From Spirochaetales bacterium (GTDB lineage Bacteria; Spirochaetota; Spirochaetia; Treponematales; Treponemataceae), in assembly GCA_030540405.1 (NCBI GenBank), contig JAUNWH010000009.1:2948-66947 (forward strand): a DNA stretch of 64,000 nucleotides. The letters run 5' to 3'. Shown in pieces: positions 2,360 to 62,349 of the stretch. Positions within the stretch are counted from its first letter, which is position 1, and each line of letters begins with the position of its first letter. Under the pieces are notes generated by a model. It saw only the letters and a list, made by a program, of their open reading frames with translations. It was not told the DNA's origin and ran no database searches. The position numbers and the translations under genes are program-made.

Positions 2360-4190
2360 AGTTTCCGGGGTTATGCTTTATGCAAAGACTCCGGGAATTA
2401 CAAGTTTTTCTTCTCTTTGGAGCATCAAGCATGCCTTGAAAACTGAAAAGGTCGGACATACTGGAACTTTGGATTCTTTTGCTGAAGGCTTGCTTGTTGT
2501 TTTGTCTGGCAATCTTACGCACCTTGTTCCTCATATAACTTCATTTACAAAAACTTATCGGGCTGTTGTTTGCTTCGGAAAAGAGACGGATACTCTCGAT
2601 CCGACCGGAGATGTTGTAAAAACTGGCGTGGCGGCTTCTAAAGAGCAAATTGAAACTGCGCTGAAAAAATTTACTGGAGCAGTTCTGCAAGTTCCGCCTG
2701 TTTATTCTGCGCTTCATGTTGACGGAAAACGTGCAAGCGATCTTGTCCGCGGCGGAAATGAAATTCATCTTGAAAGCAGGCAGGTTTTTATTTATAAAAA
2801 TGAGCTTCTTGATTTTAAAGAGCCTTCAGAAAATGACGCTTGCTCTTATGCGCTGCTTGAAATTGTCTGCTCAAAAGGAACTTACATCCGCGCGCTTGCC
2901 AGAGACATTGCCTCTAGCCTTGGAACTTGTGCCCATTTATGCGCTTTGAGGCGGACTAAAGTCGGACCGTTTGAATTAAAAGATGCGGCGTGTTTTGGCG
3001 AGCTAAAAGAATTTTCAATAGAAAACGGAATTCAAAATGCGCTTTATTTGCAAAAGGAAAAAGAGAAAATCCATCTTCCATTTGAACAAAAAATAAAAAA
3101 ACGCCATGAAGATTCAGCTGAAAAAATTCAAGACATAAGAAATCACTTTTTGCTTTTTTCTCAAAAACTAGCGTCGCTTTGCGGTTTTAGCTGCGATATT
3201 TTAAAGCCTGAATTTGAAAAGTCATATTTGAATGGCCGTCCGCTTTCACAGAAAATGTTTGACATTGCAAGCTGCGGAAATGTTGAAAATGAAATTGCTG
3301 TTTTTTATTCGTCTGGAAATTTCTCCGGAATAATTTGCAAAAACAAAGATTCAAAACTTTCTTATGGTTTTGTTGTTCCGCCTGAAAAAAAAGAATTCAA
3401 AATTTTTTCTTGGAATGAATTTTGCAGTTTGAATTTTCCGATTGAATGGAAATCAAAAGGCTGCGCTCTTACGGTCGGAAGTTTTGAAGCCGTTCATGCA
3501 GGCCATGCTGCGCTTATAAAAACTGCTGTTGCTCAAAAAAAATTTATTTCGGGAATTATAACTTTTTCTTCGCAGATAAAAAATGACGGAACTTGTTCAA
3601 TTTTTACTCTTGAGCAGCGGCTGGAATTTTTCAAGGAGCTTGGACTTGACTTTGCTGTTGTGATTGACTTTACGCAGGATTTTTCAAAAATTGAGGGAGC
3701 TGATTTTATTGAAACTTTGATTTCAGTTTGCGGAATGAAATTTCTTGCTGAGGGTAGCGATTTTAAATGCGGCTACAAAGGCTCGCTTAATATGGAAGAA
3801 CTTGAAAAAATTTCACAGGAAAAAAATTTCGAGCTTTGCAAACAGGATTACGTTTTTTTTGAAGATGAAAAAATCAGCTCAAGCCGCATAAAAAAAGAAA
3901 TTCTTGCAGGAAATTTTATATGCGCGCAGAAAATGCTTTTGCGTCCGTTTGCTTTGGATGTCCGCGGAATTTCATTGAAAGAAAAATCTGCTGGAAATGA
4001 AAATTCGATTTTTGAATTCCGCAATGAGAAAAATCAGATTTTGCCAAAGAACGGAATTTATAAAGTTGCTGCGCTTGATTCTGACGGAAATGTTTTTCAC
4101 ACAACTCTTGAGATTGAAAACGAAAATCTTAGGATTGCGCTTCCGACTTCTGGAATTGCAGAAAAAACAGTCGAGATAAAATTTTGCTGA
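2286..4190 (+). CDS. truB: Fused tRNA pseudouridine-55 synthase (TruB) and FAD synthetase (RibF-like) protein
   Basis: N-terminal half has KTPGITSF...GHTGTLDSFAEGLLVV (TruB catalytic Asp motif). C-terminal half has TVGSFEAVHAGHAALI (FMN adenylyltransferase GxFDxxHxGH). One uninterrupted ORF. True start is probably ATG 2328 or 2373, because 2286 overlaps rbfA. Confidence 0.8.
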   Translation: MRWKMNLGKLKSAKMSKMPEKTKNKVSGVMLYAKTPGITSFSSLWSIKHALKTEKVGHTGTLDSFAEGLLVVLSGNLTHLVPHITSFTKTYRAVVCFGKETDTLDPTGDVVKTGVAASKEQIETALKKFTGAVLQVPPVYSALHVDGKRASDLVRGGNEIHLESRQVFIYKNELLDFKEPSENDACSYALLEIVCSKGTYIRALARDIASSLGTCAHLCALRRTKVGPFELKDAACFGELKEFSIENGIQNALYLQKEKEKIHLPFEQKIKKRHEDSAEKIQDIRNHFLLFSQKLASLCGFSCDILKPEFEKSYLNGRPLSQKMFDIASCGNVENEIAVFYSSGNFSGIICKNKDSKLSYGFVVPPEKKEFKIFSWNEFCSLNFPIEWKSKGCALTVGSFEAVHAGHAALIKTAVAQKKFISGIITFSSQIKNDGTCSIFTLEQRLEFFKELGLDFAVVIDFTQDFSKIEGADFIETLISVCGMKFLAEGSDFKCGYKGSLNMEELEKISQEKNFELCKQDYVFFEDEKISSSRIKKEILAGNFICAQKMLLRPFALDVRGISLKEKSAGNENSIFEFRNEKNQILPKNGIYKVAALDSDGNVFHTTLEIENENLRIALPTSGIAEKTVEIKFC

Positions 4191-21937: not shown

Positions 21938-21965
21938 TTGCAATCTCTGTGTTTTGCAATATAAT
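21938..21965 (+). promoter_or_regulatory. Candidate sigma-70 promoter of the NlpC/P60 lipoprotein gene
   Basis: TTGCAA (21938-21943), 16-nt spacer, TATAAT (21960-21965). Confidence 0.55.
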
Positions 21966-22013
21966 GTAGTTGTTCAAATCTTAATTTTATCAGCCCCGTA
22001 AAATACTATACAC

Positions 22014-22021
22014 GGGGGGGG
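22014..22021 (+). repeat. G8 homopolymer in the 5' UTR/Shine-Dalgarno position of the NlpC/P60 gene
   Basis: GGGGGGGG followed by TAGAA and the GTG start at 22027. Confidence 0.95.
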
Positions 22022-22026
22022 TAGAA

Positions 22027-22572
22027 GTGAAAAGCAAATTTATATTTGCTCCTTTTTTGTTCTGTTTTGCCATTCTGTTTGTTTCCTGCAATTTTAACAA
22101 TGATTCCGATGATACTACTGAAATAGACTGCCCTGCGGAAATTGCTTCCCGCGCGTTCCGATTTGCTGAATTGTACAAAGATTCTGATACGGTTTATGAG
22201 CTGGGCGGTCAATCTCCAGTCCGTTCCGCTATTGCCATAGACTGTTCTGGGCTTGTCGTGATGTGCTACAAGTATGCAATGGTCGATACAAAATATTCTT
22301 TGCCTGTTTCGGACATGACGGCGGGTTATATGTGCGAATGTGCTTCGTCTCACGTTACGCTAGAGCAAATGCGGCAGGGCGATTTGATTTTCATGGGCGA
22401 GGCGGATTCTTCCAATGTGTCGCATATCGCGCTTTTTGACCGGCTAGAAAACGACAATGTCTATTTTATCGACAGCACGGAAAAAGACGGCATAAGCGGT
22501 GTTACTTGCCGATATTATCCTTCCAGTGATTCGCGCTTTAAGTCGTTCGGCGTGATGAGAATTCAATATTGA
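22027..22572 (+). CDS. NlpC/P60 family cell-wall hydrolase lipoprotein
   Basis: Signal peptide with lipobox FVSC. Catalytic Cys motif DCSGLVVMCY and downstream His (VSHIALF). GTG start. Confidence 0.8.
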   Translation: MKSKFIFAPFLFCFAILFVSCNFNNDSDDTTEIDCPAEIASRAFRFAELYKDSDTVYELGGQSPVRSAIAIDCSGLVVMCYKYAMVDTKYSLPVSDMTAGYMCECASSHVTLEQMRQGDLIFMGEADSSNVSHIALFDRLENDNVYFIDSTEKDGISGVTCRYYPSSDSRFKSFGVMRIQY

Positions 22573-24454: not shown

Positions 24455-24769
24455 TTATTTATAGCTGATAGCAATTCCGCTCATGTTGTAACTGTTGAAT
24501 GTAAAAATAAGGAACACTGTTTTCTTTGTGTCAACTTTTACATTTACAACATCATCGCATTCTGGATACTTTTTCTTTGCTTCTGCATAAAGCTTGCTAT
24601 AGCCAGAATTTGTGGCAGAAGACTTTACTTCTACACGTCCAAGAACTTCATAGCTTTGCGCATCACCTGGAAAAGCTCCTGCATCACTAAGTGGTGTCAT
24701 AGAAATGCAGCCTGTTAGTGTTGCCGTCAAAATCAGCATAGACAACAATAAACCTACTCCTTTTTTCAT
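24455..24769 (-). CDS. Small lipoprotein of unknown function
   Basis: GGAGG then ATG at 24769. Signal peptide MKKGVGLLLSMLILTATLTGC with lipobox LTGC. 104 aa. The longer ORF (to 24829) would run through its own promoter. Confidence 0.75.
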   Translation of the reverse strand: MKKGVGLLLSMLILTATLTGCISMTPLSDAGAFPGDAQSYEVLGRVEVKSSATNSGYSKLYAEAKKKYPECDDVVNVKVDTKKTVFLIFTFNSYNMSGIAISYK

Positions 24770-24798
24770 ATTTACCTCCAGAAAAAATAGGATACTGT

Positions 24799-24825
24799 AT
24801 TGTACCCCCCCCGGGATTCTGTCAA
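24799..24825 (-). promoter_or_regulatory. Sigma-70 promoter with a G8 tract in a 15-nt spacer
   Basis: Minus strand reads TTGACA-GAATCCC-GGGGGGGG-TACAAT. RBS and ATG follow about 20-30 nt downstream. Confidence 0.7.
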
Positions 24826-24850
24826 GCATTTTTTTATAAAAAACTTTTCT

Positions 24851-24879
24851 TTGCTTTTTGGAATATTCCGTAGTATAAT
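24851..24879 (+). promoter_or_regulatory. Candidate sigma-70 promoter of hpf
   Basis: TTGCTT (24851-24856), 17-nt spacer, TATAAT (24874-24879). Confidence 0.55.
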
Positions 24880-24952
24880 ATTATTGTAATCTTAAAAAGA
24901 TTGCGGCGGCAGTTTGCTGCGGGATTTAAATATATTTATTAGGAGAAAAACT

Positions 24953-25243
24953 ATGACAAAATCAATATCTGCACAGGGCTTTACTTTGGATTCAGACCAG
25001 ACAGCTCTTATCAACAAAAAACTGGAGCGCATAAGTTACGCTGAAAATCTTATCGTTGACTTGATTATGCACGTAAAGGAAGATAAAAAATTCTACTTTG
25101 ATACAACTGTTAACTTTAGATGGGGTGGAAATGCTCATGTTACAGGCGATGACTTTGACTTTGCGGCTGCGCTTAACAAAATGATGGATGTTCTTGATAC
25201 AAAAATCAAGAAAGAAAAAGATAAGGTCCAGGAGAAAAAATAA
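24953..25243 (+). CDS. hpf: Ribosome hibernation promoting factor / sigma-54 modulation protein (short HPF/RaiA type)
   Basis: AGGAG then ATG at 24953. 96 aa. C-terminal DDFDFAAALNKMMDVLDTKIKKEKDK matches the HPF signature. Confidence 0.8.
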   Translation: MTKSISAQGFTLDSDQTALINKKLERISYAENLIVDLIMHVKEDKKFYFDTTVNFRWGGNAHVTGDDFDFAAALNKMMDVLDTKIKKEKDKVQEKK

Positions 25244-47646: not shown

Positions 47647-48483
47647 TTAAAGTTTTCCGCCTTCAACTACAAGAGCGTCTGCGTCAGAGTCTGCTCCATA
47701 AGTTGAACGAAGTGTCGCTTCATAGTCAGCATGGAAAAAGTTTTCTTTTCCAAGTTCTACGATTTCATTGTTTAGCCATTCAAGAAGACTTGAGTTTCCT
47801 TTTTGAACTGCGGCGGCGATTGTGTCAAGTTCACCAAGGCTTTCAATTCCAACTTTATATCCCGGATTTTCCAAAGCCCAGGCAAGAACTTCTGTGTTAT
47901 CTGTTGACATTCCGGCTCCTCTTCCGTCAAGCAGGGCGGCGTAGGCTTCTGAATACTGATCGAATTTTAAAAGCTCAACTTCTGGATAATTTTTTGTAAA
48001 ATAAGTTTCAGCTGTAGTTCCTTTGCTGATTATAAGTTTTTTTCCAATCAAGTCTTCAGGCTTTGTAACGAGAGCTGATTCCGGGGAAACAACTCCAAGC
48101 GCAACCTTCATATATGGAAGCGCAAAGTCAACTTTTTCTGCACGTTCTGGAGTTACAGTGAAGTTTGCAAGAACAATGTCAACTTTTCCTGTAACAAGAA
48201 ATTCAACGCGGCTTGCGGCTTCAACTGGAACGTACTTTACTTTTACGCCAAGATCTTTTGCAATGCGGTTTCCAAAGTAAACATCGTATCCTTGGTACTC
48301 GCCGTATTCATCAACATATCCAAATGGCTTTTTGTCGCTGAAAACTGCTATTTTTATTTCTCCGCTTTTCTTTATCTGCTCAACAGTTCTTGCGGAAGTT
48401 TTGTTTTCTTTTGCGCAAGCTGAAAATAAAGCAAGGAGTGTTGCGATTCCGGCGGCAAGAATAGTTCCGTTTTTTGTTTTCAT
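47647..48483 (-). CDS. Polar amino-acid ABC transporter substrate-binding lipoprotein
   Basis: Lipobox LFSAC and a family-3 SBP fold (FGYVDEYGEYQGYDV). Confidence 0.88.
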   Translation of the reverse strand: MKTKNGTILAAGIATLLALFSACAKENKTSARTVEQIKKSGEIKIAVFSDKKPFGYVDEYGEYQGYDVYFGNRIAKDLGVKVKYVPVEAASRVEFLVTGKVDIVLANFTVTPERAEKVDFALPYMKVALGVVSPESALVTKPEDLIGKKLIISKGTTAETYFTKNYPEVELLKFDQYSEAYAALLDGRGAGMSTDNTEVLAWALENPGYKVGIESLGELDTIAAAVQKGNSSLLEWLNNEIVELGKENFFHADYEATLRSTYGADSDADALVVEGGKL

Positions 48484-60410: not shown

Positions 60411-61229
60411 ATGGAAATTGATGTTGCCCACGGATACCTGGATTCATTGAAAAAATATCCGCTGCTTTCCGCCGATGAAGAAATCGCGCTTGCAAAAAGA
60501 ATCAAGTCTGGAGACAAGGAAGCGTTCAATCTTCTTGTAAATTCCAATCTTAGGCTTGTTGTGAGCGTTGCAGGAAGATTCAATAAAGGCGCATCTTGCA
60601 TTATGGATTTGATTCAGGAAGGAAACCTTGGACTTATGACTGCTGTCCAAAAATTTGATCCGGCATTTGGAACTAGATTTTCAACTTATGCCTACAGATG
60701 GATTGTGCAGCGTATAATGAAATTCATCAGTGCTAACAGTTCTCCGATTTTGCTTCCGGTGCACAGGGAATCTCTTTTGCGCCGTATCCAGAAGTTTCAG
60801 AATATTTTCTTTCAGCAGAACGGAAGAGAAGCCACGGTCAAGGAACTTGCGCTTTTTGCTGGAATTTCAGAAGAGAGGCTGAATGATGTTCTTGATACTT
60901 CTTATACAGTCGCATCTCTTGATGTTGAAGTTGCTGATGAAGGAAAAACGGTTTCGCTAGGCGATGTTATCCCGGACACGGCGTTTTCTCCAGAAGAACT
61001 TGCGGTCAGAGAGGATTCCAAAAGCTGCGTTAATTTTTTTATGGATTCTTTAACAGGAATAGAAAAGAGTGTTTTGTGGCATCGTTATAATTTTGACTAT
61101 GACTTGCATTCAAAAAGTTTGCGTGAAGTCGGTAAAATTGTCGGGCTGAGCCAAGAGGCGGTGCGCCAGGCTGAGCTCCGTGCCAAAAAACATCTTAAAT
61201 CTGCAATGGAGAGTGTTTTTGCTGTTTAG
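60411..61229 (+). CDS. Group-2-like alternative sigma-70 family factor (RpoS-like)
   Basis: Region 2 NLRLVVSVAGRF...DLIQEGNLGLMTAVQKFDP...FSTYAYRWIVQRI. Region 4 SLREVGKIVGLSQEAVRQAELRAKKHL. GGAG lies 7 nt before ATG 60411. 272 aa. Confidence 0.88.
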   Translation: MEIDVAHGYLDSLKKYPLLSADEEIALAKRIKSGDKEAFNLLVNSNLRLVVSVAGRFNKGASCIMDLIQEGNLGLMTAVQKFDPAFGTRFSTYAYRWIVQRIMKFISANSSPILLPVHRESLLRRIQKFQNIFFQQNGREATVKELALFAGISEERLNDVLDTSYTVASLDVEVADEGKTVSLGDVIPDTAFSPEELAVREDSKSCVNFFMDSLTGIEKSVLWHRYNFDYDLHSKSLREVGKIVGLSQEAVRQAELRAKKHLKSAMESVFAV

Positions 61230-61367: not shown

Positions 61368-62303
61368 TTATTTTATTTTTATAGGTTCGGAGTCTATAGA
61401 TGCTGTTCTCCACATAAAATTTTCTTGACCTTCCATTTCAAGTTCAAAACTGTATGCATATTGTGCAATTAGGTGAGATTTGTTTGAACTGTCAAGAAAA
61501 TATTTGAATCCCTTTGATAATAACTCTGTATTATATTTATTTGAACAATAAGCTATGTTATTTGGGGTGCGATCAACTGCTTCGTATAATTCTTCCGAAG
61601 ATATTATTTCTTGCACGTCTCCTTTATAGTTTCCAAGCCAAAGAACTTCATTGTCAATGTCAGTTGCATCCCAGTTAATAGTGCTGCTGTTTGTTACGCT
61701 GTAGCTTATGAATGCCTTTACATTTTTCGCTTCTGGAGGAATGCAATCAATTATTTGGCAAGTTGGTTTTGTTCCATCGTATGACAGGTTCAAGTGTCTG
61801 CTTGATTTTAAATTTGAATAATCGATGTCGCCAATTCCATCTGTAGCAGTAATAGTTAGGAAATCTTCATAAGCATTTAGTCTGTCTCCGATTTCTATCT
61901 TAACACAAAATTTATATTTTTCTCCTGGCTCGCATAAAGGATAAAGAAAACTGAATTGTTCATTTGAAATTAATGGCACGTCTAGCTTTGTGCTGTACAA
62001 TCCATTTTCTTCAATTCTTTGAATTGATATGTATGTTGTTCCTTTTGGAGGCGTGATTGAAAATTTTATTCCGCCTTCTACTGCTGCACATTCTACTCGA
62101 TCGGTTTTTGTAATTTCAGCATATTCTCCTTCCTTTTTTATTTTTCGGCTTGGATTATATATAACACCGTCTTTCTTGATTCTAAGGTCAAGAACTCTTG
62201 AACTTGTATCATCTGAATCTGAACTGCTTGATCCGTCGGAACAGCTTGAAAAACAAATTGCACAAATCAATGAAATTCCAAAAATAAAGTTTCTAATTTT
62301 CAT
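61368..62303 (-). CDS. Lipoprotein of unknown function
   Basis: ATG 62303 preceded by GAGG. Signal peptide MKIRNFIFGISLICAICFSSC (lipobox FSSC), then an S/D-rich linker. 311 aa. Confidence 0.75.
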   Translation of the reverse strand: MKIRNFIFGISLICAICFSSCSDGSSSSDSDDTSSRVLDLRIKKDGVIYNPSRKIKKEGEYAEITKTDRVECAAVEGGIKFSITPPKGTTYISIQRIEENGLYSTKLDVPLISNEQFSFLYPLCEPGEKYKFCVKIEIGDRLNAYEDFLTITATDGIGDIDYSNLKSSRHLNLSYDGTKPTCQIIDCIPPEAKNVKAFISYSVTNSSTINWDATDIDNEVLWLGNYKGDVQEIISSEELYEAVDRTPNNIAYCSNKYNTELLSKGFKYFLDSSNKSHLIAQYAYSFELEMEGQENFMWRTASIDSEPIKIK

Positions 62304-62322: not shown

Positions 62323-62349
62323 ATTTTACCCCCCCCTAAATTTTGTCAA
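62323..62349 (-). promoter_or_regulatory. Sigma-70 promoter with a G8 tract in a 15-nt spacer
   Basis: Minus strand reads TTGACA-AAATTTA-GGGGGGGG-TAAAAT. Same layout as 24799-24825. Confidence 0.7.

Follow-up and report, generated by a model that had tools for sequence, protein, structure and literature searches.

A G tract of variable length in the promoter spacer of a lipoprotein gene: a candidate phase-variation switch in gut treponemes

Results

A G8 tract separates the predicted promoter hexamers of a 104-aa lipoprotein gene

The DNA analysed here, a stretch of 64 kb referred to as the window, comes from a gut Treponema. The window is 91–93% identical over 8 kb to contig_161 of Treponema sp. 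UBA6852 (L036), and the related contigs were obtained from Hadza and Nepalese human gut metagenomes. The gene of interest encodes a 104-aa lipoprotein (its ORF starts with MKKGVGLLLSMLILTATLTGC) and is oriented divergently to the gene for a ribosome hibernation factor (24914–25243); this second gene has its own promoter (TTGCTT-N17-TATAAT), and rpoN lies beyond it. The features of this locus, referred to as locus 1 (24455–24860, minus strand), are as follows:

24826–24860, minus strand: A/T-rich stretch AAAGAAAAGTTTTTTATAAAAAAATGC, 5' of the -35 hexamer, conserved in lineages A and B (defined below)
24820–24825, minus strand: predicted -35 hexamer TTGACA, a perfect consensus, kept in the orthologous promoters (TTGACT in the P0013 lineage)
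24813–24819, minus strand: non-repeat portion of the spacer, GAATCCC, the same in L001, L002, L036, L153 and L169
24805–24812, minus strand: homopolymer of eight G's abutting the -10 hexamer, the hypermutable element, recognised from the sequence and from its length alleles
24799–24804, minus strand: -10 hexamer TACAAT, predicted from the sequence
24791–24795, minus strand: predicted transcription start zone, 5–9 nt 3' of the -10 hexamer, placed by standard sigma-70 geometry
24775–24779, minus strand: Shine-Dalgarno sequence GGAGG
24455–24769, minus strand: target gene, an ORF for the 104-aa lipoprotein with lipobox LTGC and its ATG at 24769

The initial annotation had read TTGACA-GAATCCC-G8-TACAAT on the minus strand, with a spacer of 15 nt, followed by GGAGG and the ATG of a 104-aa lipoprotein. 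Reading the strand back from 24825 to 24799 gave this same arrangement, the 15 nt being made up of GAATCCC and the G8, and the GGAGG (24779–24775) and the ORF of 104 aa with its LTGC lipobox were found downstream. Thus, locus 1 has a homopolymer of at least about 7 nt between recognisable, predicted -35 and -10 hexamers, as the contingency loci of the porA and tp0126 type do. The A/T-rich stretch at 24826–24860 possibly plays an UP-element-like role.

Other structures at this site were considered and set aside. A terminator-like hairpin (24808–24789) was rejected, as its 5' arm precedes the predicted start and no gene in the same orientation reads into it. The CCCGGG palindrome was dropped as a functional unit, or cruciform, because the C's are absent from locus 2 and from lineage C, and a G-quadruplex was rejected since there is one G run only at the site. 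A fold check of the predicted 5'UTR of locus 1 gave no notable structure.

The 104-aa protein has 22 homologs, all from Treponema-type metagenome contigs, and the only one of these that is named is from a Treponema MAG. The search against Pfam assigned no family, that against NCBIfam returned only weak matches to Leptospira lipoproteins (E ~0.01), and a profile search of the PDB gave nothing below E 0.36. The AlphaFold model (pLDDT 77) has a beta-alpha-beta-beta arrangement, and its matches to dodecin-like folds were non-significant only. Neither family searches nor comparison with the PDB by sequence or by fold placed the protein with Tpr or OmpW, in agreement with its earlier description as an unrelated lipoprotein. 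It does qualify as an envelope-type target, as does the protein of locus 2: both have predicted lipoprotein signal peptides, with lipoboxes LTGC (locus 1) and FSSC (locus 2).

G8 tracts are rare in the window and lie 5' of lipoprotein genes

The GC content of the window is 35–44%. As had been claimed, long G or C runs are rare in it: just three runs of 7 or more were counted in the 64 kb, at 22014–22021 (plus strand), 24805–24812 (minus strand) and 62329–62336 (minus strand). Overlapping G7 matches number 6, compared with a mean of 0.58 in shuffled sequences, and 6 was reached by one of the 100 shuffles. The complete layout, TTGACA-N7-G8-TAnAAT, occurs twice, both times on the minus strand (24799–24825 and 62323–62349), and in none of the 100 shuffles; the pattern search therefore returned exactly the two sites that had been noted from the sequence. 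Using a strict regular expression for lipoprotein signals, we found four lipoprotein genes in the window, three of which have a G8 at most 50 nt 5' of the start codon. The fourth (start at 48483) has the promoter TTGACA-N17-TATGTT and no G tract. Note that the initial annotation had put all three tracts directly 5' of lipoprotein genes, which is correct, but the third of them (22014–22021) lies outside any -35/-10 spacer. The features of these two further loci are:

62323–62349, minus strand: second copy of the layout, TTGACA (62349–62344), AAATTTA, G8 (62336–62329) and TAAAAT (62328–62323), with a spacer of 15 nt
61368–62303, minus strand: target of locus 2, a 311-aa lipoprotein with lipobox FSSC (MKIRNFIFGISLICAICFSSC), identified as an ORF with a lipoprotein signal
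22014–22021, plus strand: third G8, 5 nt before a GTG, in the 5'UTR at the Shine-Dalgarno position and not in a promoter spacer
22027–22572, plus strand: NlpC/P60 lipoprotein gene behind the third G8, identified by a domain match

The protein of locus 2 belongs to a large and diverse Treponema family (598 homologs) that includes T. succinifaciens, and an NCBI 'Spirochaetales bacterium' MAG encodes a protein with 100% identity to it. Exact-sequence look-ups of the locus-2 and locus-3 proteins gave no match, and homologs were compared instead. In the syntenic orthologs of locus 2 (83% identity) the promoter reads TTGACA-AAACTC, then G9 in 13 contigs or G10 in 2, then TAAAAT. The T. succinifaciens homolog (55% identity) has a nearly identical promoter, with G8 in 2 cases and G9 in 4, and conservation is far higher in its promoter, 5'UTR and signal peptide than in the mature protein. 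A gene for a 272-aa, group-2-like sigma factor (60411–61229, plus strand) is convergent to the lipoprotein gene of locus 2 in the window; its best NCBIfam matches are the RpoD/SigA and RpoS models, all under their cut-offs; this adjacency is retained in the orthologous loci at 83% identity (L186–L200).

Upstream of the third G8 there is a conserved promoter, TTGCAA (21938–21943), N16, TATAAT (21960–21965). The third tract is also G8 in UBA6852, although the intergenic DNA around it shares only 78% identity (21938–22045, plus strand, in the window; 3010–3085, minus strand, in L036). In the predicted fold of this 5'UTR the G run pairs with an upstream CCCCG, or UCUCG in UBA6852 (z-scores -2.0 and -2.3), and the predicted hairpin covers the bases ahead of the start codon in both genomes. 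If this third tract is a switch at all, it would act differently from the tracts in the spacers.

Tract length differs between otherwise identical contigs

The promoter of locus 1 was retrieved from other assemblies, all of them short-read metagenome assemblies and some with a coverage of only 2–5x. In lineage A (at least 95% protein identity) the tract is G8 in the window, L153 and L169, and G9 in L001, L002 and L036. The window and L001, which possibly derive from one and the same sample, align over 1,269 bases with 0 substitutions, and their sole difference is G8 versus G9. Another contig of this lineage, L003, ends inside the G tract, which may be a hint, the only one in these data, of tract lengths that vary within a population. 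Lineage B (84% identity) has the promoter TTGACA-AAGTCCC-Gn-AGG-TATCAT, and its three contigs L004, L005 and L006, with 0 substitutions over 1,735 bases, carry G10, G6 and G10, that is, spacers of 20, 16 and 20 nt.

Lineage C (66% identity) lies in a chromosomal neighbourhood that differs from that of locus 1. Nine of its contigs align over 2,213 columns with 21 substitutions, and the indels are confined to the tract and to one other, single-base site. Among them, L010 shows no substitutions relative to L012, L014 and L015 and has G9 where these have G8. In the tenth contig of this lineage, L007, the tract is interrupted (G6CG) and the spacer measures 15 nt. Lineage D (64% identity) has TTGACT-N9/10-G9-TATGAT, with spacers of 18–19 nt. 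The position of the poly-G in the promoter of locus 1 is thus retained in orthologs down to 64–66% protein identity.

Two further lineages of homologs of the 104-aa protein have a T9 in place of the G's (L201–L210 and L214–L217) and served as a control. Their promoter consists of TTGCTA or TTGACA, N6, T9, G and TATAGT, with a spacer of 16 nt, and it showed no length change in the 14 contigs, which argues against generic assembly noise at homopolymers. In three other contigs (L211–L213), a T run in a terminator tail about 80 nt 5' of the promoter is T9 in L211 and L213 and T8 in L212; these strains also differ by substitutions, which shows that length changes between diverged strains are not confined to G runs. 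The poly-G read artefact of two-colour Illumina sequencing was considered as a source of the tract itself and was rejected, as the tract sits within fixed flanks in dozens of independent assemblies.

Across strains, then, the tract is not invariant: G8/G9, G6/G10 and G8/G9/G10 were found with unchanged flanks. In the pairs of contigs free of substitutions it is the only difference over 1.2–2.2 kb, in support of the earlier proposal of a slippage-prone tract that alters the promoter spacer. Moreover, the 16-nt spacer that had been predicted to arise by the addition of one G exists in nature, in the G9 alleles of L001, L002 and L036.

Spacer lengths and a recurrent promoter cassette in Treponema

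About 82 Treponema promoters of the poly-G type were collected. Their spacers measure 14, 15, 16, 18, 19 or 20 nt, 15 being the commonest length, and none of the ~82 has a spacer of 17 nt. The plausible ordinary promoters of the window (4222, 19727, 36494, 42066 and 48542) have spacers of 16–17 nt. The polymerase therefore appears to be conventional, and the two 15-nt poly-G promoters would be sub-optimal as they stand.

A scan of metagenomes for TTGACA-N2-3-TCCC-G6+...TAYMAT returned 49 loci. About 38 of these (L137–L185) represent one Treponema cassette, TTGACA-AATCCC-G8/G9-TACAAT, with a conserved hairpin in the 5'UTR (GCTGAATTTTTTCAGC) and a signal peptide of the form MRKFAKISAVLAAM...C, often followed by a poly-Asp stretch. 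This MRKFAKIS cassette is fused to varied mature lipoproteins and occurs in multiple copies per assembly. Its tract is G8 in 12 copies and G9 in 25, with no other lengths, giving spacers of 14 or 15 nt. The cassette was also seen at L019, L025, L075 and L087. Contigs from a bin labelled Desulfovibrionaceae (CAVKBG01) carry it too, so this bin probably includes Treponema contigs.

A more general pattern, TTGACA-N6-7-G8-N0-2-TAnAAT, was searched for in one genome per species and matched at least 120 loci (L017–L136); it limited the spacers to 14–17 nt, and is therefore uninformative on the preferred spacer, and the proportions of the taxa are indicative only. Among the matches listed there are Treponema, other spirochaetes, many uncultured gut Clostridia, Planctomycetota, Saccharibacteria, Microcystis and others. 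Among these same listed matches, the optional N0-2 bases are nearly always extra G's, giving the layout TTGACA, N6-7, G8-11, TAnAAT, and most precede ORFs with N-termini that resemble signal peptides or lipoproteins. Several genomes have multiple matches (DVOJ01, CALVYR01 and SVIS01, at least 3 each).

One contig, L157 (OIYF01003408.1), is 99.6% identical to L153 and L169 on the side of the hibernation factor gene and rpoN, up to the last base of TACAAT. Past this junction, which corresponds to position 24798 of the window, it carries the 5'UTR and the gene of an unrelated lipoprotein of the MRKFAKIS cassette. Either recombination at the poly-G promoter common to both loci replaced one gene by the other, or the contig is a chimera, joined in assembly across the ~27 nt that the two sequences share.

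Discussion

Our results make it likely that locus 1 is controlled by a sigma-70-type promoter whose spacer consists in part of a slippage-prone G homopolymer, and that shifts in the length of this homopolymer tune the transcription of the lipoprotein gene. Slipped-strand mispairing at replication would gain or lose G's, each of which would change the spacer by one base (the natural range being 14–20 nt) and so alter how the two hexamers are aligned on RNA polymerase. The outcome would be heritable and reversible changes, ON/OFF or graded, in the transcription of the downstream lipoprotein gene. Since tract length differs between otherwise identical strains, it is probably a mutational dial on expression, as in the syphilis spirochete. 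We infer that the predicted hexamers form a working promoter, that tract length alters its transcription, that certain lengths are ON and that switching takes place within a population or clone. Both window genes are probably low or OFF at G8, because their 15-nt spacers are 1–2 nt shorter than those of ordinary promoters of the same genome (16–17 nt); the G9 and G10 alleles would be stronger than the G8 of the window.

It could be argued that the real tract is fixed and that its apparent changes in length are artefacts of sequencing or assembling a G homopolymer. The comparators are short-read assemblies, some of them of low coverage, and most of the differences are of a single base and could, at low coverage, be consensus errors. 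However, a gap of 4 bases (G6 versus G10) between contigs otherwise identical over 1,735 bases is not explicable as a consensus error, and the T9 at the same promoter position is unchanged in 14 contigs. Moreover, the tract is the only indel in alignments of 1.2–2.2 kb, bar the one single-base indel in lineage C, and both lengths recur across several independent samples. We consider such an artefact very improbable. A tract that does change in length might still have no regulatory effect, being GC-rich filler or a by-product in a weak constitutive promoter, and its polymorphism would then be neutral. Most alleles do lie at 14–16 nt, with none at 17, and the interrupted variant in L007 retains the 15-nt spacer, both of which fit with neutrality. 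Against this, a G8–G10 run should decay quickly in a genome of 39% GC, but the tract is found at the same place across orthologs at 55–66% protein identity and in unrelated lipoprotein families, and is absent elsewhere in the 64 kb. To our knowledge, spacer changes of 1–5 nt affect sigma-70 promoters in every system tested, which also counts against neutrality, and we find this explanation unlikely.

The main rival is that the poly-G affects transcription by a route other than the spacer, as at tprE/G/J/L of T. pallidum, where eight or fewer G's are permissive, transcription starts ~4 nt past the tract, with the co-operation of a CRP-like regulator; G8 would then be the ON state. PMC7864442 describes this as a second treponemal mechanism in which a spacer effect is ruled out for tprL, and the lengths observed here cluster at G8–G9 however long the rest of the spacer is, with spacers of 14–16 and never 17 nt. 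However, TTGACA and hexamers of the TAnAAT type (with the variants TTGACT, TATCAT and TATGAT) flank the tract across lineages, which is the geometry of tp0126 and porA. In addition, N7 with G8 and N6 with G9 at locus 2 both add up to 15, suggesting that the spacer is constrained as a whole. Taken together, we judge a tpr-like mechanism to be rather unlikely, and favour the control of transcription by spacer length.

The absence of 17-nt spacers could plausibly mean that the majority population carries mainly OFF or weak alleles, as may be expected for variable surface antigens. Another reading is that a perfect -35 and -10 with a 17-nt spacer would be too strong. A third is that the optimum would not be that of E. 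coli, or that the mechanism is the tpr-like one discussed above.

More speculatively, gut treponemes may possess a portable poly-G promoter module (TTGACA, N6-7, G8-10, TAnAAT, a conserved 5'UTR and a lipoprotein signal peptide) that is common to many unrelated lipoprotein genes and possibly exchanged between them. It would provide combinatorial phase variation of surface lipoproteins, as the vlp genes of Mycoplasma do, with a default spacer that is deliberately sub-optimal (14–16 nt) or a length optimum that is non-canonical, and similar modules might be widespread in uncultured gut Clostridia. We put this forward tentatively, as a possibility with the odds against it. In support of it are the at least 38 cassette copies with only G8 or G9, the several copies per assembly, the gene switch exactly at the -10 hexamer in L157, and the at least 120 generic matches across phyla, mostly upstream of secreted proteins. 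Such a module might extend to several lipoprotein families and perhaps to more than one phylum.

Poly-G phase variation in treponemes has so far been studied only in T. pallidum, an experimentally difficult pathogen. The gut treponemes that show the same promoter-spacer design here are commensals; they belong to the T. succinifaciens group and are typical of non-industrialised human populations. Several unrelated lipoprotein genes carry the design, and public metagenomes already contain natural alleles of different length. These findings suggest that surface lipoproteins have long been under stochastic control throughout the genus, and that this is not an adaptation of the pathogen. T. succinifaciens can be cultured, and it carries the switch candidate of locus 2, which makes it a tractable model for the function of the tract. 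In practical terms, expression studies may miss the lipoproteins concerned or find them variable, and mis-calls and breaks are to be expected at the tracts in assemblies.

Comparison with known systems

In the vlp system of Mycoplasma hyorhinis, several lipoprotein genes likewise have a homopolymer, a poly-A, in the promoter spacer. These genes are clustered. Their promoter, 5'UTR and signal peptide are shared and conserved, their mature regions diverge, and the ON state corresponds to a 17-nt spacer. The MRKFAKIS cassette of Treponema resembles this design of a shared promoter and divergent mature regions, and differs from it in having poly-G instead of poly-A.

A literature search on poly-G or phase variation in T. 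succinifaciens and other gut treponemes found no relevant paper. The spacer mechanism as such is already established, in the same genus and in Neisseria, and the evidence supports well that the loci of this gut treponeme add a new case to it. The precedent in T. pallidum that the initial annotation had invoked (tpr genes and TP0126) is borne out by PMC7864442, which reports that 76% of 17 poly-G tracts tested in this species vary in length. In Neisseria meningitidis porA, as PMC7864442 presents it, the poly-G also separates the -35 and -10 hexamers, and when G's are lost the spacer falls below 17 nt and transcription is lowered or abolished; porA differs in belonging to another phylum and in having a porin as its target, and its commonest ON state has a 17-nt spacer.

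The tprE/G/J and tprL genes are similar to our loci in that treponemal poly-G tracts, which vary in vivo from 7 to 11 G's according to PMC7864442, lie 5' of envelope protein genes. In the account given there, tprE/G/J need eight G's or fewer and the start of tprL lies 4 nt after its tract. The difference is that the tpr tract overlaps the -10 region, with the start ~4 nt downstream and the spacer mechanism ruled out, whereas here a predicted, canonical TAnAAT follows the tract.

The closest parallel is tp0126 of T. pallidum, which encodes an OmpW homolog. The genus is the same, the G homopolymer lies between sigma-70-type hexamers and the gene behind it encodes an envelope protein that has a signal peptide. 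As summarised in PMC7864442, citing Giacani 2015, the length of the tp0126 tract sets transcription, which is optimal at a 17-nt spacer; the natural spacers found here are 14–16 nt (18–20 nt in two lineages) and never this optimal 17. The target also differs, being an unrelated 104-aa lipoprotein without a Pfam family. Finally, the host is a commensal gut treponeme of 39% GC in which a G8 is rare, compared to ~53% GC in T. pallidum.
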